This document shows, one piece after another, positions 4,790 to 64,000 of a DNA stretch of 64,000 nucleotides. Both the position numbers and the translations under genes were made by a program. The DNA is from Escherichia coli (GTDB taxonomy: Bacteria > Pseudomonadota > Gammaproteobacteria > Enterobacterales > Enterobacteriaceae). The notes under the pieces were generated by a model. It searched no databases, was not told where the DNA came from, and was given only the letters and a program-made list of their open reading frames with translations. Where the stretch lies: NCBI RefSeq assembly GCF_011045215.1, contig NZ_CP049201.1, one strand, 5' to 3'. Position 1 is the first letter of the stretch; every line of letters begins with the position of its first letter.

Positions 4790-7465
4790 TTACTTCAACA
4801 TATTACGAATGACATAATGCAAAATGCCGTCGTTCTGGTAGTAGGTCAACTCCGTCGCGGTGTCGATACGACAACGGCAGGGTACGACTTCCTGGCTACC
4901 ATCCGCGCGCGTAAGCGTCACCGGAACCGTCGCGCCGGGTTGTAGGTTTTGCAGATCGCCAATATCAATCTTCTCTTCCCCGGTTAGCCCTAACGTTTTA
5001 CGCGTTACGCCTTGCGGAAATTCCAGCGGCAGGATGCCCATGCCAATTAAATTCGAACGGTGAATTCGTTCAAACGATTCGGCAATCACCACACGAATAC
5101 CAAGCAGACGCGGACCTTTTGCCGCCCAGTCACGGCTGGAGCCTGATCCATACTCTTTCCCGGCAATCACCGCCAGCGGCGTTTGCTCCTGCTTATAGCG
5201 CATCGCAGCATCATAAATAGAGACTACGTCGCTGTCAGGTAAATGCCGCGTCATCCCCCCTTCAACGCCAGGCACCATTTCATTACGGATGCGAATATTG
5301 GCGAAGGTGCCGCGCATCATCACTTCATGGTTACCACGCCGCGAACCGTAGGAGTTAAAGTCTTTTCGCTCAACACCCCGACCTTGTAGGTATCGACCCG
5401 CTGGGCTGTCGGGCTTAATACTGCCCGCCGGAGAGATATGGTCAGTGGTGACTGAATCCCCCAGCATTGCGAGGATCCGCGCACCGTGAATATCTTCCAC
5501 AGGTGCTGGTGTTGCCTGCATTTCATCAAAGAAAGGCGATAAACGAATATAGGTTGAATCCTCCTGCCATCCGTAGGTATCGGATCGTGCGACGTTAATT
5601 TCTTTCCACTCTGCAGTGCCTTCAAAGACTTCTGCGTACTCTTTGCGGAACATTTCTGTGGAGACTTGTTCTACCGCACGGGCAATTTCTTGTGCCGATG
5701 GCCAGATATCTTTCAGATATATTGGATCGCCTTTACGATCATGACCAATAGGCTCAGAAGCCAGGTTGATATTCATATTTCCCGCCAGCGCATAAGCAAC
5801 CACCAGCGGCGGCGAGGCCAACCAGTTGGTTTTAACCAGCGGATGGATACGGCCTTCAAAGTTACGGTTGCCGGACAGCACTGCACCGACGGTTAAATCG
5901 CCTTTTTTGATTGCCGTTTCGATAGGATCGGGCAGCGGCCCAGAGTTACCAATACAGGTGGTACAACCGTATCCCACAAGGTTAAACCCCAGTTCGTCGA
6001 GATACGGTGTAAGTTTCGCTTTTGCCAGATAATCAGAAACGACTTTCGAACCCGGTGCCAGCGACGCTTTGACCCACGGTTGCCGCTTGAGGCCCAGAGT
6101 TACGGCTTTTTTCGCCAGCAAGCCTGCGGCCATCAGCACACTTGGGTTAGAGGTGTTGGTGCACGAGGTTATCGCAGCAATGACCACAGCGCCATCAGGT
6201 AACTGATACTGATGTCCGTTCATAACATAATCGACCGGCTGGCGATCTTTATGCGTGGCATTCACTTCCAGTTCGTTACTGGCGGCAAATGCTTTTGGTA
6301 CATCGGGCAGTGCAACGCGATCCTGTGGGCGTTTAGGCCCTGCCAGGCTCGCTTCAACGTCATTCATATCCAGTTCTAACGTACTGGTAAAAATCGGTTC
6401 ATCGCCCGGGTTACGCCACATGCCCTGCGCTTTGGCATATTTTTCGACCAACTCGACCTGATCTTCGCTGCGCCCGCTTAAACGCATGTAATCGAGGGTT
6501 ACAGCATCGATTGGGAAGAAGCCACAGGTGGCACCATATTCTGGCGACATATTGGCAATGGTGGCGCGATCCGCCAACGGTAGTGAATCCAGACCATCAC
6601 CATAAAATTCGACGAATTTCCCCACCACGCCATGTTTGCGCAGCATTTGGGTAACAGTGAGAACCAGGTCTGTAGCGGTAATACCTTCACGTAATTTTCC
6701 GGTAAGTTTAAAGCCCACTACGTCCGGGATAAGCATGGAAACCGGCTGGCCTAACATTGCGGCTTCTGCTTCGATGCCACCCACGCCCCACCCCAACACG
6801 CCAAGGCCGTTTATCATAGTGGTGTGCGAGTCAGTACCAACGAGTGTATCCGGATAAGCAATCCATTCACCGTCCTGCAATTCGCTCCACACTGCTTTGC
6901 CGAGATATTCGAGGTTAACCTGATGGCAAATGCCTGTGCCTGGCGGCACGACGCTAAACCGACTGAACGCCTGCTTTCCCCATTTCAGGAACACATAACG
7001 TTCGTGGTTGCGCTCCATTTCCAGGCGTACGTTTTCTTCAAATGCCTCATCATCACCAAAACGATCGACGGTCACCGAGTGGTCAATGACCAGGTCGACC
7101 GGTGAGAGCGGGTTAACCTTTGCAGTATCGCCGCCGAGGCGTTTAACCGCTTCGCGCATTGCAGCGAGATCAACAACGGCAGGTACGCCGGTAAAGTCCT
7201 GCATCAGCACCCTTGCCGGGCGGTAGGCAATTTCACGGTCAGCATGGGCATTTTTCAGCCATCCCGCCAGCGCGTGGATATCCTCTTCGGTAACCGAGTT
7301 ACCATCCTGCCAGCGCAGCAGGTTTTCGAGCAAAACTTTGAGTGACTTGGGTAGACGGGTGATATCGCCCAGTGATTTGGCAGCAAGCGGCAGGCTGTAG
7401 TAGTGGTAAGTTTTATCTTTGGCCTGCAACGTGTCCTTACTGGCTTCTCGTAGGGTTGACGACAT
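4790..7465 (-). CDS. acnA: Aconitate hydratase A
   Basis: 891-aa ORF with aconitase-family motifs; matches recalled AcnA. Confidence 0.97.
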
Positions 7466-20329: not shown

Positions 20330-20350
20330 GAACAAAATTAGAGAATAACA

Positions 20351-21913
20351 ATGCAAACACAAAAACCGACTCTCGAACTGCTAACCTGCGAAGGCGCTTA
20401 TCGCGACAACCCGACTGCGCTTTTTCACCAGTTGTGTGGGGATCGTCCGGCAACGCTGCTGCTGGAATCCGCAGATATCGACAGCAAAGATGATTTAAAA
20501 AGCCTGCTGCTGGTAGACAGTGCGCTGCGCATTACAGCTTTAGGTGACACTGTCACAATCCAGTCCCTTTCCGGCAACGGCGAAGCCCTGCTGACACTAC
20601 TGGATAACGCCCTGCCTGCGGGTGTGGAAAATGAACAATTACCAAACTGCCGTGTGCTGCGCTTCCCCCCTGTTAGTCCACTGCTGGATGAAGACGCTCG
20701 CTTATGCTCCCTTTCGGTTTTTGACGCTTTCCGCTTATTGCAGAATCTGTTGAATGTACCGAAGGAAGAACGAGAAGCCATGTTCTTCGGCGGCCTGTTC
20801 TCTTATGACCTTGTGGCGGGGTTTGAAGATTTACCGCAACTGTCAGCGGAAAATAACTGCCCTGATTTCTGTTTTTATCTCGCTGAAACGCTGATGGTGA
20901 TTGACCATCAGAAAAAAAGCACCCGCATTCAGGCCAGCCTGTTTGCTCCGAATGAAGAAGAAAAACAACGTCTCACTGCTCGCCTGAACGATCTTCGCCA
21001 GCAACTGACCGAAACCGCGCCACCGCTGCCGGTGGTTTCCGTGCCGCATATGCGTTGTGAATGTAACCAGAGCGATGAAGAGTTCGGTGGCGTAGTGCGT
21101 TTGTTGCAAAAAGCGATTCGCGCTGGAGAAATTTTCCAGGTGGTGCCATCTCGCCGTTTCTCTCTGCCCTGCCCGTCACCGCTGGCGGCCTATTACGTGC
21201 TGAAAAAGAGTAATCCCAGCCCGTACATGTTTTTTATGCAGGATAATGATTTCACCCTGTTTGGCGCGTCGCCGGAAAGTTCGCTCAAGTATGACGCCAC
21301 CAGCCGCCAGATTGAGATCTACCCGATTGCCGGAACACGTCCACGCGGTCGTCGTGCCGATGGTTCACTGGACAGAGACCTCGACAGCCGCATCGAACTG
21401 GAAATGCGTACCGATCATAAAGAGCTTTCTGAACATCTGATGCTGGTGGATCTCGCCCGTAATGATCTGGCACGCATTTGCACCCCCGGCAGCCGCTACG
21501 TCGCCGATCTTACCAAAGTTGACCGTTACTCTTACGTGATGCACCTGGTCTCCCGCGTGGTCGGTGAGCTGCGCCACGATCTCGACGCCCTACACGCTTA
21601 CCGCGCCTGTATGAATATGGGTACGTTAAGCGGTGCGCCGAAAGTACGCGCTATGCAGTTAATTGCCGAGGCTGAAGGTCGTCGCCGCGGCAGCTACGGC
21701 GGCGCGGTAGGTTATTTCACCGCGCATGGCGATCTCGACACCTGCATTGTGATCCGCTCGGCGCTGGTGGAAAACGGTATCGCCACCGTGCAAGCCGGTG
21801 CTGGCGTAGTCCTTGATTCTGTTCCGCAGTCGGAAGCCGACGAAACCCGTAATAAAGCCCGCGCTGTACTGCGCGCTATTGCCACCGCGCATCATGCACA
21901 GGAGACTTTCTGA
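20351..21913 (+). CDS. trpE: Anthranilate synthase component I
   Basis: 520-aa ORF; matches recalled TrpE. Confidence 0.97.
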
Positions 21914-23508
21914 TGGCTGACATTCTGCTGCTCGATAATATCGACTCTTTTACGTACAACCTGGCAGATCAGTTGCGCAGCAATGGGCATAACGTGGTGA
22001 TTTACCGCAACCATATTCCGGCGCAAACCTTAATTGAACGCCTGGCGACGATGAGCAATCCGGTGCTGATGCTTTCTCCAGGACCCGGTGTGCCGAGCGA
22101 AGCTGGTTGTATGCCTGAACTGCTTACCCGCCTGCGCGGTAAGCTGCCTATTATTGGCATTTGCCTCGGTCATCAGGCAATTGTCGAAGCTTACGGGGGC
22201 TATGTCGGTCAGGCGGGCGAAATTCTCCACGGTAAAGCGTCGAGCATTGAACACGACGGTCAGGCGATGTTTGCCGGATTAACAAACCCATTGCCGGTGG
22301 CGCGTTATCACTCGCTGGTTGGCAGTAACATTCCGGCAGGTTTAACCATCAATGCCCATTTTAATGGCATGGTGATGGCAGTACGTCACGATGCGGATCG
22401 CGTTTGTGGATTCCAGTTCCATCCGGAATCCATTCTTACTACCCAGGGCGCTCGCCTGCTGGAACAAACGCTGGCCTGGGCGCAGCAGAAACTAGAGCCA
22501 ACCAACACGCTGCAACCGATTCTGGAAAAACTGTATCAGGCACAGACCCTTAGCCAACAAGAAAGCCACCAGCTGTTTTCAGCGGTGGTACGTGGCGAGC
22601 TGAAGCCGGAACAACTGGCGGCGGCGCTGGTGAGCATGAAAATTCGCGGCGAGCACCCGAACGAGATCGCCGGAGCAGCAACCGCGCTACTGGAAAACGC
22701 CGCGCCGTTCCCGCGCCCGGATTATCTGTTTGCCGATATCGTCGGCACCGGCGGTGACGGCAGCAACAGCATCAATATTTCTACCGCCAGTGCGTTTGTC
22801 GCCGCGGCCTGTGGGCTGAAAGTGGCGAAACACGGCAACCGTAGCGTCTCCAGTAAATCTGGTTCGTCCGATCTGCTGGCGGCGTTCGGTATTAATCTTG
22901 ATATGAACGCCGATAAATCGCGCCAGGCGCTGGATGAGTTAGGTGTTTGTTTCCTCTTTGCGCCGAAATATCACACCGGATTCCGCCACGCGATGCCGGT
23001 TCGCCAGCAACTGAAAACCCGCACCCTGTTCAATGTGCTGGGGCCATTGATTAACCCGGCGCATCCGCCGCTGGCGTTAATTGGTGTTTATAGTCCGGAA
23101 CTGGTGCTGCCGATTGCCGAAACCTTGCGCGTGCTGGGGTATCAACGCGCGGCGGTGGTGCACAGCGGCGGGATGGATGAAGTTTCATTACACGCGCCGA
23201 CAATCGTTGCCGAGCTGCACGATGGCGAAATTAAGAGCTATCAGCTCACCGCAGAAGACTTTGGCCTGACACCCTACCACCAGGAGCAACTGGCAGGCGG
23301 AACACCGGAAGAAAACCGTGACATTTTAACACGCTTGTTACAAGGTAAAGGCGACGCCGCCCATGAAGCAGCCGTCGCGGCGAACGTCGCCATGTTAATG
23401 CGCTTGCATGGCCATGAAGATCTGCAAGCCAATGCGCAAACCGTTCTTGAGGTACTGCGCAGTGGTTCCGCTTACGACAGAGTCACCGCACTGGCGGCAC
23501 GAGGGTAA
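21913..23508 (+). CDS. trpD: Anthranilate synthase component II / anthranilate phosphoribosyltransferase
   Basis: 531-aa ORF, glutamine amidotransferase N-domain plus PRT C-domain. Confidence 0.97.
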
Positions 23509-50283: not shown

Positions 50284-50340
50284 CTATCACTAATGTCGCA
50301 ACCAGAGGAGTTGCGACTCCGAAGATTACATAGGAAATTA

Positions 50341-50823
50341 ATGATTATGGGATTCGTCATTTTCATTGCGATCGTAATTTTATCCATTTACGTTCTTACC
50401 AAATTATTTATTTCAGAAAATTCACACGACAAAATTAGAGCCGAGGCATCCAGAAGAATTGCACAAGAAGAGGCCGAACGGGCTAAGTTGTATGAAGAGA
50501 GAAAGGAATCATCTGATAATCCTGTTAATAAACAAAAACGAATAACAACACACGAAGATCATTTTTATATGGATATTCATGGTGGTCACAAATATATATG
50601 TGTTGATGCTAAGTTAGTTTTTGAATATGCAAATTTAAAACACAACTATTTTCTTCACGCCTCTCACTATTTCCCTGAGTTAGAGTATGTTTATGGAAAA
50701 AACGAACATGGGAAAATAGTTAGAGTAGATTTGTACGATAAAAAAATTCAAGCTATTAACCCCGATACTGGCGAAAAAATACCTGGTGTGAGACGTTATC
50801 TACGACAGCACAAGATAAAATAG
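50341..50823 (+). CDS. AT-rich membrane-anchored protein of unknown function
   Basis: ORF track 50293..50823; start taken at MIMGFVIFIAIVILSIYVL (ATG 50341, RBS AGGAAA); single N-terminal TM helix; markedly lower GC than neighbours. Confidence 0.5.
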   Translation: MIMGFVIFIAIVILSIYVLTKLFISENSHDKIRAEASRRIAQEEAERAKLYEERKESSDNPVNKQKRITTHEDHFYMDIHGGHKYICVDAKLVFEYANLKHNYFLHASHYFPELEYVYGKNEHGKIVRVDLYDKKIQAINPDTGEKIPGVRRYLRQHKIK

Positions 50824-60162: not shown

Positions 60163-62079
60163 TTATCCTCCACTCAGTGCAGCCGCGATCTCTTCCATGC
60201 TCATATCATCCTCATCCTGCTCATCTCTTCGTGCCCTCGCCAGCGCTTCAAGGTCCAGTTGCCACCGCTGTACCGAAACGCGCAGGGCGGCATAAGCATA
60301 TACCAGGCAGTCGAGGGCTTCGTTGCGTCGCCCTTTTTTATCCCACAGCAGTTTCACCCTGCCGTTAACCACCTTTTCCACCAGTTCTTCCGCTACGATT
60401 TGACGCGCCTCTTCTTCCGAAAAAATGTCCGGGTTATCCGGAAAACGGAAGGTATACGGGGCTGCTTCACTTGCAGAAACCACCGGCAGGGCAAAACGCG
60501 CATACAGCATTTCCTTGACGGTATCGGAGCCCACCTCACACAAAAACACACCACGCTGGTTGCGCTTTTTGGGCATGGTGATCACCGGCTTGCCATACAC
60601 CGATGCCCCTTTTATGGGAAGCACAAAAAAAGTGCCGTGTTTCCTGGAACGCTGATACACAATGTCCTGGTCGATACCACCGGTATCCCAGCAGACGCGG
60701 GAAATGGAAATTTCAGTACCGTCAGCATGGCGGTATTTTTTCCGGATCACCGCATCAACACGTTTAAGGGTGTCCTCGTCCTCCGGTCGCCCCATGATAA
60801 TTTGCTTGTCAATCAGAAAGGCTTCTTCGCCGGGAGCCCAGCCCCAGACATAAATTTCATAGCGATCTTTCTGGGAGTCGATCCCGGCAGTCAGGTAAAC
60901 CACCCGCAGGGGAACCTGCGCATCATAGTGGCAGACTTTTTCCAGCAACAACTCAAAGCTCAGTTTTTCTGCCACGGCCTCTTCATAGGGCTCCCCGAGC
61001 GTGGTGTTAATAAACGTCTTGACACCGTTCGGATCCTTCAGCGCATCCAGCCAGTCATAAACAATCTGTACCCAGGTGGTGAACGGACTGTACGCTGTCC
61101 ACACGTGGTACGTGATTGAGCGCGGTGGCGGCATCTCCTCATCACCGGCGCTGTAAAATGCCAGGCCGTCACGCGTCCACATCCCGGTATTGTCACAAAT
61201 CCAGCGCCCGTCGGTCTGGTCAAGCTCCGACTGCCGGATCACACAGCCATTATGTTCACACAGGTAATACACCGTTTCCGGTTTACCCTTCTCCCATTTC
61301 AGGCCAAAGGTTGTCGCATCATCGCCAAACTTAAGATACTGGGCTTCACCACAATGAGGGCATGGCACATAAAACCGCATAAAATGTGCAGATTCGTTCG
61401 CGGCTTTTTCAATCTGACAGGAACCTTTAATTTTTGGCGTTGAGCCGCGTATGGATTTAGGCCATACCGAACCTTCGATACGTTTATCGCCAAGCAGCGT
61501 TGGCGAGCCTTCCTTTTCCACATCCGGTTCAAACGAGGAGAGTTCGTCATAGCAGACCACATCCACTGATTTTTCACGGTAGTTTTTAGCAGCGGCACCC
61601 CCCAGGCACCAGAACCCCACGCCGGAGGAGAAACGCTTCAGGGTGAGTGTGTTGTCACGATGTTTTCTGCCCAGCCATGGCGATAACGCTTTAAGGCTGG
61701 GGACATCCCGGAGCGTTGCTTCCACATGCGCTTTCATAAAATCTTCAGCTGCGGAATCTGTCGGCTGGAAGAGCAGGCTGTTACGGGATTTATGCTCAAT
61801 AAAATACCCGACCACGCCCAGCAGCATTTTGGTGTAACCCACACGCGCCGATTTAATCAGATTAACAGTGCGGATCCTGTCGTGCCCCATGCTGTTCATA
61901 ATGGCGACCTGGAACGGCAGTGTTTTCCATTCCCCATCACCGTATGACGATTCTTTAGGCAGATAATAATTTTGATCAGCCCATTCAACTGCCGTCATCG
62001 GTACAACCCTGACCAGAGGCTGCAGCGCAACTGAAACAGCAGCCATCATATTATTCAGCTGTAGTTCGGATATATTCAT
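60163..62079 (-). CDS. Terminase large subunit (lambda gpA-like)
   Basis: ORF track 60163..62115; start taken at MNISELQ (ATG 62079); extensive match to recalled lambda A (TAVEWAD.NYYLPKES, KRIEGSVWPKSIRGSTPK, WTAYSPFTTWVQIV). Confidence 0.95.
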   Translation of the reverse strand: MNISELQLNNMMAAVSVALQPLVRVVPMTAVEWADQNYYLPKESSYGDGEWKTLPFQVAIMNSMGHDRIRTVNLIKSARVGYTKMLLGVVGYFIEHKSRNSLLFQPTDSAAEDFMKAHVEATLRDVPSLKALSPWLGRKHRDNTLTLKRFSSGVGFWCLGGAAAKNYREKSVDVVCYDELSSFEPDVEKEGSPTLLGDKRIEGSVWPKSIRGSTPKIKGSCQIEKAANESAHFMRFYVPCPHCGEAQYLKFGDDATTFGLKWEKGKPETVYYLCEHNGCVIRQSELDQTDGRWICDNTGMWTRDGLAFYSAGDEEMPPPRSITYHVWTAYSPFTTWVQIVYDWLDALKDPNGVKTFINTTLGEPYEEAVAEKLSFELLLEKVCHYDAQVPLRVVYLTAGIDSQKDRYEIYVWGWAPGEEAFLIDKQIIMGRPEDEDTLKRVDAVIRKKYRHADGTEISISRVCWDTGGIDQDIVYQRSRKHGTFFVLPIKGASVYGKPVITMPKKRNQRGVFLCEVGSDTVKEMLYARFALPVVSASEAAPYTFRFPDNPDIFSEEEARQIVAEELVEKVVNGRVKLLWDKKGRRNEALDCLVYAYAALRVSVQRWQLDLEALARARRDEQDEDDMSMEEIAAALSGG

Positions 62080-62560
62080 CGAGTAACTCCGGCAATTTAT
62101 CCCCTGTCCGCGCACACTGATTCGCGCCTTTTGCGATAAGGGTTTTCAGATAATCGATATGACGCGGGGTTAAATCCGGGAACTGTCGCTGCATGGATAA
62201 AGGAATGGAATCAAGCGTACTGGACAATGCCATCGCCAGTTTGCTGAGAGCGAAAACGCAGAACCCAGAATCAATGAGCTTGCCTTCGGTTACCTGATTT
62301 TTTAATTGCTGTGCTATTGCCTGTTCTTCAGTCAATTTCCATCTGGCGATAAGTAATTTTTCTTCGTAATCGCTATTTCCATCGTCATCAGTATCGCTTC
62401 TTCCTTTGCGTTTAAGGTATGAAATATAAAAATATCGCCAGGCATCAATATCGTATTCACCACGCTTTCGATTTTTTGGCGCTCCCGGGTGCTTCTGAAG
62501 ATCCCGCAACCAGCGTTCAGTTATACCAAGATGCTCGGCTACCTCCGCCTGCGTTGCCAT
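62051..62560 (-). CDS. Terminase small subunit (Nu1-like, prophage copy)
   Basis: 169-aa ORF upstream of terL; C-terminal half similar to the element TerS; N-terminal domain distinct. Confidence 0.8.
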   Translation of the reverse strand: MATQAEVAEHLGITERWLRDLQKHPGAPKNRKRGEYDIDAWRYFYISYLKRKGRSDTDDDGNSDYEEKLLIARWKLTEEQAIAQQLKNQVTEGKLIDSGFCVFALSKLAMALSSTLDSIPLSMQRQFPDLTPRHIDYLKTLIAKGANQCARTGDKLPELLDEYIRTTAE

Positions 62561-62699: not shown

Positions 62700-62776
62700 A
62701 CTCGAAAAATTTTCATAAATAGCGCGTTTTTGCGCGTCCTACGACCCCCGGTGTTTCAGATTCCGGAAAGGACCCG
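62700..62776. other. Lambda-like cos site of the prophage
   Basis: CTCGAAAAATTTTCATAAATAGCGCG ... GCGCGTCCTACGACCCCCGG ... GGAAAGGACCCG; reverse complement parallels the lambda cos junction; about 180 bp upstream of Nu1-like gene. Confidence 0.65.
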
Positions 62777-63421
62777 CGCAAATGAGAGCATTTATCATTA
62801 ACATTTACAGATAAGATGACGTACATCATTGCAACGCCATTCAGCCATATACCTGTGGCATTCGTTGTTGCACTCCGTAACCCTGCGACTAAAGTTGAAA
62901 GCATGGCCATCTTTTGCCACCGGCAAATCTTCAATGGATTTCCCCTGCCGGTTTTTTATTTTCGTCGATGCATAACATTGCATTTACATCAATACCGTCT
63001 ATTGTCATAAGTATGTTGTACCGATGCTCGGGTGATATTGGCGGTCTTCGCCAGCCGGTTCTGTGTAGCTGCTCCCTGTGACCGGTTTTTTATTTCTCAC
63101 ATTATCGCAGCCCCTCACTGAAGGGCTGCTGTAATGCCTGTTACTCACAAATCAAACGAACATGCTGACCACTCATTTCAATGCGTAAGTATTGTGGCTT
63201 GCCGTCAATCAACGCGGTGATTAACTTGTCACCTGTAGGTTTCCACATAATTTTCTCCTGTTTTAATGCCCCTTGCCGCCGGGCAGTTGATCAAAGTTCA
63301 TCTTGATTCGACAAGATTTAGAATGAATAAGATAAAATTGGCACAAGCAGCAGAATTTCATGCTTTCTGGACGCTGGCGCACCCTTCATTTTTCAGCAAA
63401 ATATTCTGCTCTTACAGGCGA

Positions 63422-63646
63422 TCAGTTCTGCATACACTGCCGAACACCGTCGACAATTTCACAGACCTGAGAAGCTGTATCGAAAAGCTGGCGCGCCTTA
63501 TCCAGGCTGACGCACCCCACCAATAAAAAAGGCACCAGTATCGCTACCAGTGCCCATTTCGCCGCCGTTCGCGGCATTCTGTGTGTCCAGTGTTTTCGGC
63601 TCATGTCACCACCACCTGACCGCACTAACCAACTGTGCAATACCAT
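63422..63646 (-). CDS. Putative small lipoprotein
   Basis: Hydrophobic leader ending in lipobox-like LLVGC; start uncertain; function unknown. Confidence 0.35.
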   Translation of the reverse strand: MVLHSWLVRSGGGDMSRKHWTHRMPRTAAKWALVAILVPFLLVGCVSLDKARQLFDTASQVCEIVDGVRQCMQN

Positions 63647-63821
63647 ACAAACACAAGCAAAACGCTCCAGCCTTGATTAACCAGGCGGTAGCTACACTGA
63701 TTTCGCTCGTCACCGGAGCTTTCAGTTCAGGGCCGTTTTTCATTGTCAACCTCAGCAGTATTCTTTTATACTTTCCCACGAGGATTTTTTCCGTATTCAC
63801 TGAGCACAATTTCCTTTTCAT
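63606..63821 (-). CDS. Hypothetical small protein with C-terminal hydrophobic segment
   Basis: 71-aa ORF overlapping the lipoprotein ORF in another frame. Confidence 0.3.
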   Translation of the reverse strand: MKRKLCSVNTEKILVGKYKRILLRLTMKNGPELKAPVTSEISVATAWLIKAGAFCLCLYGIAQLVSAVRWW

Positions 63822-63838
63822 CGCGTGATAACTAAAAA

Positions 63839-63875
63839 CCCCGGACTGTTCCAGCAGCCGGGGTTTTATTTTTTT
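63839..63875. terminator. Bidirectional hairpin terminator
   Basis: CCCCGG..CCGGGG stem with flanking A-run and T-run, immediately after the stop of the partial gene at the window end. Confidence 0.5.
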
Positions 63876-64000
63876 ATTTACTGGTATGAGTGCGGCATCG
63901 GGCTATTTCATTCCGGGCCTTACTGTCACCGCGACAGATGCAACGCACCGTATCGCCGTTCAGTGTGGTAATGTAAGCCTCATCCTCTTTTTCTACCGGA
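63874..64000 (-). CDS. 3' end of a gene continuing beyond the window (Cys-rich C-terminus)
   Basis: Minus-strand frame ...VEKEDEAYITTLNGDTVRCICRGDSKARNEIARCRTHTSK-stop; start outside window. Confidence 0.3.
   Translation of the reverse strand, partial: PVEKEDEAYITTLNGDTVRCICRGDSKARNEIARCRTHTSK

Follow-up and report, generated by a model that had tools for sequence, protein, structure and literature searches.

A census of phage spanins lists phage phiP27 as a 'separated' two-component system, whose inner-membrane (i-spanin) and outer-membrane (o-spanin) proteins are singleton families with the shortest combined periplasmic length in the census, 62 residues (32 + 30) (Kongari et al., 2018; PMC6139136). 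The o-spanin, listed there as the shortest known, is encoded downstream of the endolysin gene at 20706..20861 as a precursor of 51 amino acids (aa) with a mature part of 30 aa and 83% helix, and the i-spanin, of 64 aa, at 20348..20542; the same census counts 31 genomes with a lipoprotein but no linked i-spanin, and about 13% of phages without an identifiable spanin (PMC6139136). Here we describe a lipoprotein of the same family, Lpp60, encoded in a prophage at the end of a 64,000-nucleotide (nt) stretch of Escherichia coli DNA (RefSeq assembly GCF_011045215.1, contig NZ_CP049201.1), called the window below. The phiP27 o-spanin is 93% identical to Lpp60. What is new about a family already catalogued as o-spanin is that, as the comparison of related loci shows, the lipoprotein stands alone. 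We consider it probable that Lpp60 is a lysis factor for the outer-membrane step, working without the canonical partner and replacing Rz/Rz1.

The census assignment of phiP27 is bioinformatic only, and its i-spanin part appears doubtful. The proposed i-spanin gene (5332..5526, minus strand, in our phiP27 locus, L015) starts with TTG, runs antisense to an open reading frame (ORF) of 90 aa with a PHROG family of its own (phrog_36812), and was found in just one of about 180 related loci. The o-spanin label given to the Lpp60 family is a reasonable positional call; the defining feature of a two-component system, a cognate i-spanin gene embedded in, overlapping or adjacent to the o-spanin gene, was not found in the loci compared. 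In the RefSeq record of phiP27 (NC_003356.1; L015 5013..5244) gene L32 (P27p32, 51 aa) is annotated in the wrong frame, the conserved lipoprotein ORF occupying record positions 20673..20861 in a different frame.

Lysis cassette at the end of the window

The phage genes in the right part of the window (gpW, portal, S49 protease and terminases) lie on the minus strand. An earlier note on this DNA, made from the sequence alone, had pointed to four small ORFs upstream of cos near the window end; all four were found, on the minus strand, in the same direction as the terminase and head genes. The features delimited there, from upstream to downstream, are:

63874..64000, minus strand: 3' end of the p93 gene, 41 codons and the stop codon (63876..63874); phrog_33497
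63834..63863, minus strand: terminator-like hairpin between p93 and TM45, seen in the sequence (CCCCGG...CCGGGG followed by five T)
63606..63743, minus strand: TM45, a putative 45-aa tail-anchored membrane protein (MKNGPELK...VSAVRWW); GAGG 6 nt before the ATG at 63743
63422..63604, minus strand: Lpp60, a 60-aa prolipoprotein, probable ATG at 63604; phrog_7528
63520..63555, minus strand: intragenic terminator-like hairpin and T-run in the signal-peptide codons of Lpp60; 11-bp stem, about -16 kcal/mol
63141..63248, minus strand: p35, a 35-aa ORF with a strong AGGAG site 7 nt upstream; phrog_8025

The note had placed a lipobox-containing ORF at 63422..63646, which is exactly its longest, 74-aa form; the conserved start is the ATG at 63604 (MSRKHW...LLVG|C). 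The 35-aa ORF exists as described, its position of 63137-63244 being off by 4 nt. A 71-aa ORF with a C-terminal hydrophobic segment was likewise recovered (63606..63821 in its longest form, the segment lying at the extreme C-terminus and the protein ending in RWW), and it was said to overlap the lipobox ORF. This overlap vanishes with the probable starts: the TM45 and Lpp60 genes do not overlap, are joined as TGAcATG and appear to be translationally coupled through this junction. The 71-aa form of TM45 was set aside for the 45-aa form in view of the GAGG site, the calls of the Prokaryotic Genome Annotation Pipeline (PGAP) in relatives, and variants with unrelated upstream sequence; in L001 PGAP annotates a 37-aa equivalent. 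A plus-strand ORF of 86 aa antisense to Lpp60 (63266..63526) has no family matches and was treated as spurious.

The conjecture that the lysis genes lie further upstream proved right in relatives. Contig L003, 99.1% identical to window positions 64000..62763 (the last 1238 nt), continues just past the point that corresponds to 64000 with the full 93-aa p93 gene, a GH108/PG_binding_3 endolysin (181 aa) and two holins, Holin_3_7 (92 aa) and Holin_8 (129 aa). The search for lysis signatures upstream, which the note had proposed, was made in such relatives and returned Holin_8, Holin_3_7 and an endolysin of the GH108 or M15 type. All six contigs with an identical small terminase have, 1-3 kb upstream of the terminase, the holin pair together with an endolysin of the M15_4 or GH108 type, and seven of the ten with an identical large terminase have at least one holin gene and an endolysin; of the other three, L196 reaches the endolysin only, L197 does not extend far enough, and in L193 a Mu-type transposase occupies the place. 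The layout is shared by two isolated phages, phiP27 (holin L28, holin L29, endolysin L30) and phiSTEC1575-Stx2k. Since near-identical relatives carry them there, holins and an endolysin are expected just past 64000 in this genome as well.

Very probably, then, the last 1.2 kb of the window are the promoter-distal end of a late/lysis cassette of the phiP27 type, to which the small ORFs belong. The impression that the region is devoid of lysis functions did not hold: its ORFs would be the distal part of the cassette, with Lpp60 in the Rz/Rz1 slot. As a finding that would speak against its reading, the note had named holin, endolysin and spanin genes just beyond the window, together with ORFs unrelated to lysis. 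In relatives the holin and endolysin genes are there, no spanin pair accompanies them, and the ORFs are not unrelated to lysis.

Some cassettes contain further genes. In phiSTEC1575-Stx2k, the Holin_8, Holin_3_7 and M15 genes are preceded by a class II holin gene and a 114-aa ORF (L002 8238..8802) that resemble the remnant of a second cassette, of the Shiga-toxin (Stx) phage type. Genes for enterotoxin or pertussis-S1-like A subunits, with small secreted B-like ORFs, adjoin the lysis cassette in three loci, before the holin in L007 (5673..6891) and after the endolysin in L151 and L157 (about 4950..6170).

Exchange with Rz/Rz1 after the endolysin gene

Two sets of loci were compared, the first of 96 loci (80 lipoprotein-seeded and 16 fetched earlier), the second of 80 holin-seeded loci, 76 of them informative. 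In the first set, the lipoprotein gene is located 0.4-3 kb downstream of Holin_8, Holin_3_7 and the endolysin wherever upstream DNA suffices, and no match to lambda Rz or Rz1 was found in any of the 96 loci. Among the 76 informative holin-seeded cassettes, 66 carry the lipoprotein, five carry Rz with embedded Rz1, none has both, and five have neither. The last five comprise a clean deletion of the module (L120), a truncated endolysin (L176), other cargo after the endolysin (L151 and L157), and a disrupted small membrane ORF only (L150). The lipoprotein and Rz/Rz1 are mutually exclusive at the same junction.

The junction itself is alike for both. In the second set, the commonest spacing between the endolysin stop and the lipoprotein start is 14 nt (24 of 66 loci); Rz/Rz1 of L146 starts 15 nt after an M15 endolysin, as the lipoprotein does elsewhere. 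The lipoprotein start overlaps the endolysin stop in L062 and L182, and in other loci zero to three small genes are inserted between the two. Locus L137 has, in this order, p93, the same terminator hairpin, a 45-aa membrane protein ending in IRWW, and Rz; its junction before Rz reads TGGTGGTGAtATG, against TGGTGGTGAcATG before the lipoprotein in the window, the common form being ...TGGTGGTGA(c/t)ATG. Proteus prophages with the same holin pair carry Rz.

Divergent lipoproteins, of at most 50% identity, were again found directly after an endolysin gene in four loci. Two of these (L177 and L180) have a three-gene cassette of a lambda-S-type holin (Holin_3_1), an M15 enzyme and the lipoprotein; L182 is a Mu-like phage, and in L179 the lipoprotein follows a GH108 enzyme. 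A place in the lysis cassette next to the endolysin, as is typical of an o-spanin gene, is thereby seen in about 170 related loci and four divergent contexts, and for the window is inferred from L003. The link of the lipoprotein to endolysin genes is both tight and ancient. Its sequence remains about 96% identical whether its gene stands beside an M15 or a GH108 enzyme, and beside holins that are 100% or 30% identical; such constancy argues against a specific partnership with any of them.

The lipoprotein and its gene

Lpp60 matches phrog_7528 from end to end (E = 1.4e-38). The ratio of nonsynonymous to synonymous differences (pN/pS), taken over 75 distinct DNA versions, is 0.23 for the whole gene; n-region, h-region and mature part, treated separately, each give 0.19-0.31. 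This points to a real gene under purifying selection. Homologues form 160 clusters in Escherichia, Salmonella, Citrobacter, Cronobacter and Yersinia, and are unnamed or called just 'lipoprotein'; a profile search of 1.84 billion representative proteins returned just 23 clusters, none of them in an i-spanin context. Isolated phages with the family are phiP27, phiSTEC1575-Stx2k and vB_Apl-pPE4. As the earlier note had it, nothing here resembles lambda S, R or Rz: the small ORFs match no Pfam or NCBIfam family, and their PHROG matches are all of 'unknown function'. For Lpp60 itself, no NCBIfam family and no Pfam family at E <= 0.1 was found, with Rz1, Phage_lysis (Rz), Lysis_col, Entericidin and LPP among the families covered.

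The protein reads MSRKHWTHRMPRTAAKWALVAILVPFLLVG|CVSLDKARQLFDTASQVCEIVDGVRQCMQN, the bar marking cleavage before the lipidated cysteine. The lipobox, L-V-G-C, occupies residues 28-31, with Cys31 as the predicted lipidated residue. The signal peptide is unusually conserved, the h-region and lipobox (ALVAILVPFLLVGC) being invariant or nearly so in 24 aligned homologues. Position +2 is Val and position +3 Ser, and homologues have V, A, T, S, G or E at +2; by sequence rules, Lpp60 should be exported, lipidated at Cys31 and, there being no Asp at +2, sorted to the outer membrane. The mature part, of 30 aa, has no proline, a net charge of -1 and a helical hydrophobic moment as high as 0.53; it ends 29 residues past the lipidated Cys and has no second hydrophobic segment. 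Two further cysteines, Cys48 and Cys57, are invariant in the alignment and are kept at a spacing of 8 or 9 in divergent members. They would provide the periplasmic Cys for intermolecular disulfides that is found in o-spanins.

Small membrane genes and the search for an inner-membrane partner

Candidate i-spanins were sought as ORFs of 70 aa or more for a single-pass protein whose transmembrane (TM) segment is N-terminal, from the endolysin to 1.5 kb past the lipoprotein. The scan found no candidate in 164 of 167 lipoprotein loci, and its three matches were internal fragments or noise; as a positive control, it recovered Rz in four of the five Rz loci. In the prophage part of the window, a lipobox scan left Lpp60 as the sole ORF judged plausible, the other matches being a start codon within the gene for the S49 peptidase, and an ORF of 51 aa without family support. 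A type II membrane ORF of 176 aa on the plus strand (50293..50823), with an N-terminal TM segment and a charged helical region, was rejected as a hidden i-spanin: it lies on the opposite strand, has no phage homologues and matches no Pfam or PHROG family.

The small membrane proteins encoded between the endolysin and the lipoprotein, such as TM45, are of 37-48 aa, come in several unrelated versions and are present in zero to two copies; the commonest architecture has none. All have the TM segment at the C-terminal end, and where variation permits an estimate, pN/pS is 0.09-0.55, a sign of selection. TM45 matches phrog_1115 and phrog_4493, whose function is unannotated, and no Pfam family. Set against a holin or antiholin, it has a single TM segment at the extreme C-terminus and no charged tail, and its gene is located after the endolysin rather than before it. 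These genes precede Rz as readily as the lipoprotein, which argues that a protein of the TM45 type is not the specific partner of the lipoprotein, that is, not its i-spanin. Proteins of this type appear rather to be optional accessory membrane proteins of the lysis cassette.

Terminator-like hairpins and expression

Two terminator-like hairpins accompany the Lpp60 gene. The one upstream of the small membrane gene is also present in L001, L024 and L030, and in L137, where Rz follows. The second lies within the gene: on the sense strand, at 63555..63520, the codons for WALVAILVPFLL fold into an 11-bp hairpin followed by TTTTTTATT. Nearly every one of the 75 Lpp60 variants has it, and when the peptide was recoded with synonymous codons, only one recoding in 1000 gave a terminator-like structure as good. 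Synonymous divergence of Lpp60 is lowest in this segment (pS 0.10, against 0.16-0.21). Among the divergent members, L180 has kept all pairs despite sequence changes, L179 has one unpaired position, and the hairpin is absent in L177 and L182. An internal deletion of 114 nt in the lipoprotein gene of L012, L190 and L196 starts just past this hairpin; in L120, the module of membrane gene, lipoprotein and p35 is cleanly deleted.

A crude scan for consensus matches found no sigma-70-like promoter on the minus strand. The two hairpins, one upstream of and one inside Lpp60, could limit full-length expression to late transcription antiterminated by Q, a kind of gating that, we infer, fits a late lysis gene better than a moron expressed in the lysogen.

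Proposed role and alternatives

In the role proposed here, Lpp60 would be a late product whose lipid anchor sits in the inner leaflet of the outer membrane, and would be needed for the final step of lysis, when the wall has already been degraded by the action of holin and endolysin. A 30-residue helix is unable to span the periplasm, so Lpp60 would have to work differently from Rz/Rz1. Its helices would probably associate into an oligomer held by disulfides of the two cysteines, and this oligomer would destabilise the outer membrane from the side of the inner leaflet; action by way of a host factor may be considered instead. More tentatively, a single lipid-anchored helical peptide of about 30 residues could be a fourth route through the outer membrane, with no phage inner-membrane partner. 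It might work as a disulfide oligomer, through a host factor such as OmpLA, or with uncleaved precursor as the inner-membrane arm, in each case gated by Q read-through. We hold this mechanism to be possible, and the role itself to be the better founded of the two.

Several points weigh against a role of Lpp60 in the outer-membrane step. First, its periplasmic segment of 30 residues is too short to bridge the periplasm, and the mature part is neither proline-rich like Rz1 nor cationic like disruptin. Its AlphaFold2 (AF2) model is one long helix of low confidence (predicted local distance difference test, pLDDT, 66), too weak for claims about a hairpin or a disulfide. Second, mutual exclusivity with Rz/Rz1 could reflect alternative cargo shuffled at a recombination hotspot; p35 and an unrelated 98-aa gene alternate likewise just downstream of Lpp60. 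Most of the loci are closely related E. coli prophages and so non-independent, the four divergent contexts alone adding independent weight. Third, some prophages have deletions in, or of, the lipoprotein gene. In the arrangement of the window, a terminator-like hairpin divides the module from the endolysin, a layout also typical of morons, and lambda has an unrelated lipoprotein moron, bor, in the same region of its genome. Finally, the continuation of the window itself was not recovered (the exact 54-mer of its end had no match in species-representative genomes), and our search of the literature found no paper reporting experiments on any member of the Lpp60 family.

Some of these points suit a different explanation, that Lpp60, with or without TM45, is a moron or lysogenic-conversion gene, i.e., cargo expressed by the prophage, for instance to block superinfection or change the surface as Bor, Cor and Llp do. 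The hairpin just upstream of the module, the lack of an i-spanin partner, the small size of a family confined to Enterobacterales, and the highly mosaic interval between endolysin and cos (p93, KilA-N, toxin genes, p35 or the 98-aa gene) all agree with it. A moron would be expected to have its own promoter; the crude scan found no promoter-like site for the gene, which lies on the late strand, and many loci have no intergenic space between endolysin and lipoprotein that could house one. In the commonest and in the most divergent architectures alike, the lipoprotein start overlaps the endolysin stop or follows it at a distance of 0-14 nt. Moreover, it never occurs together with Rz/Rz1, its linkage to the endolysin persists across unrelated holins, endolysins and phage types, and the hairpin inside the gene would defeat expression that is not antiterminated. 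We therefore regard a moron as unlikely.

Another explanation keeps Lpp60 within lysis, as a regulator, periplasmic or anchored in the outer membrane, that tunes its timing or guards against premature or external endolysin, the outer membrane failing passively or through host factors. This would account for the tight linkage to the endolysin whatever the holin type, and for a small protein with no features of known outer-membrane disruptors. It is improbable, given that a near-identical Lpp60 accompanies two unrelated endolysin folds (M15 peptidase and GH108), which speaks against binding of a specific enzyme, and that a swap with Rz/Rz1 at the same junction would not be expected of a regulator. 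Least credible is an ordinary two-component spanin, in which Lpp60 as o-spanin would pair with TM45 or with the 64-aa ORF of phiP27: the listing of phiP27 as a 'separated' system of 32 + 30 periplasmic residues (PMC6139136) and the translational coupling of membrane and lipoprotein genes seen in the window speak for it, and against it stand the TTG start, antisense position and single occurrence of the phiP27 ORF, the lack of any membrane gene between endolysin and lipoprotein in the commonest architecture, the presence of a similar small membrane gene before Rz, itself an i-spanin, and the topology of TM45, which could expose no more than about three residues, or a 19-residue N-terminus, to the periplasm.

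Roughly one phage in seven lacks a recognisable spanin. The Lpp60 family offers a clean test case, being present in hundreds of prophages of E. coli, Salmonella, Citrobacter and Yersinia, including Shiga-toxin phages (phiP27 and the Stx2k phage). If Lpp60 alone opens the outer membrane, it would be a minimal disruptor, easy to study and to engineer; the listing of phiP27 as a two-component spanin would be corrected, and the finding would bear on the release of toxin and virions by Stx phages. If it is a moron instead, widespread cassettes would lyse the cell without an identified outer-membrane factor, which would be informative too.

Neighbouring genes and other features of the window

The gene upstream of the module, p93, matches phrog_33497 (E = 5.5e-19), has a pN/pS of 0.18 and is seen in full in L003. 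It appears to be a real, accessory late gene for a small soluble beta-rich protein: the AF2 model (pLDDT 87.5) has seven strands and a C-terminal helix, and a Foldseek search with it returned no PDB match below E = 0.2. Members of the p93 family in Proteus and Xenorhabdus lie between Q and the holin. The earlier note had described the gene entering the window as Cys-rich; its end, ...VRCICRGDSKARNEIARCRTHTSK, indeed has three Cys in 41 residues, and Cys is not conserved across the wider p93 family. A zinc protein rich in Cys was accordingly dropped as a description of p93, the residues being confined to Escherichia-like members. For p35, which is likewise classed as accessory, pN/pS is 0.70 over nine variants and coding status is weakly supported; the unrelated 98-aa gene with which it alternates occurs at the same offset after Lpp60. 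A GC-rich hairpin with no T-run (GCAGCCC...GGGCTGC; 63111..63136, minus strand) directly follows p35, and more hairpins lie between p35 and cos.

Downstream of these genes are:

62700..62752, minus strand: cos-like region (GGGGGTCGTAGG...CGCTATTTATGAAAATTTT), recognised from its sequence, upstream of the small terminase gene
62051..62560, minus strand: Nu1-type small terminase, by a match to the Nu1 Pfam family
60163..62115, minus strand: large terminase, from the ORF list and the family scan

The location of the small ORFs upstream of cos thus stands, with a lambda-like cos region at about 62700..62752; the likeness is to the lambda left end, where the 19-mer CGCTATTTATGAAAATTTT is also present. 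Window positions 62825-62960 are about 88% identical to phage cdtI, the match stopping 78 nt short of the end of that record.

The prophage spans from about 29.8 kb to past the end of the window. The trpE/trpD genes at 20351..23508, with a best identity of 98.9% to complete E. coli genomes, indicate an E. coli-like host chromosome, and a tRNA scan found no tRNA gene in the window. Two plus-strand ORFs amid the minus-strand phage genes (49966..50823), the 176-aa ORF described above and a smaller one, may be inserted cargo or a defence module; the C-terminus of the smaller one looks like a ribbon-helix-helix, as judged by eye only.

Comparison with known systems

With lambda Rz/Rz1, Lpp60 shares the slot in the cassette, a junction that is identical in sister phages, an outer-membrane-type lipoprotein with periplasmic Cys, and a precursor length about that of Rz1. 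It differs in having no i-spanin gene, in being helical, in not being embedded in another gene, and in matching neither the Rz1 nor the Phage_lysis family of Pfam; Rz1 has 10 Pro in 40 residues, whereas the mature part of Lpp60 has none. Unimolecular spanins (u-spanins) of the T1 gp11 type are likewise products of a single gene that ends the lysis cassette and carry an N-terminal lipoprotein signal. However, they add a C-terminal TM domain and a long beta-rich periplasmic domain, both lacking in Lpp60.

The only alternative to spanins that has been characterised is disruptin (phiKT gp28), a cationic, spanin-less disruptor of the outer membrane (bioRxiv 10.1101/515445). It resembles Lpp60 as a small amphipathic helical peptide from a cassette without a spanin pair, but Lpp60 has a net charge of -1 and is predicted to be lipid-anchored. 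To our knowledge, disruptin is not lipid-anchored. The colicin lysis or bacteriocin release proteins are also very small lipoproteins, with a similar LLVGC-type lipobox and, as in ColE1, a mature part of about 28-30 aa, and they permeabilise the envelope. Unlike Lpp60, they are products of plasmid SOS genes rather than phage late genes, and they show no sequence similarity to Lpp60, which has no Lysis_col match.

Finally, lambda Bor is encoded, like Lpp60, by a lipoprotein gene between the lysis genes and cos. Bor has 97 aa and is made in lysogens, from a gene on the opposite strand; Lpp60 is dissimilar to it in sequence, and the Lpp60 gene lies on the late strand and abuts the endolysin or another gene of the lysis cassette.

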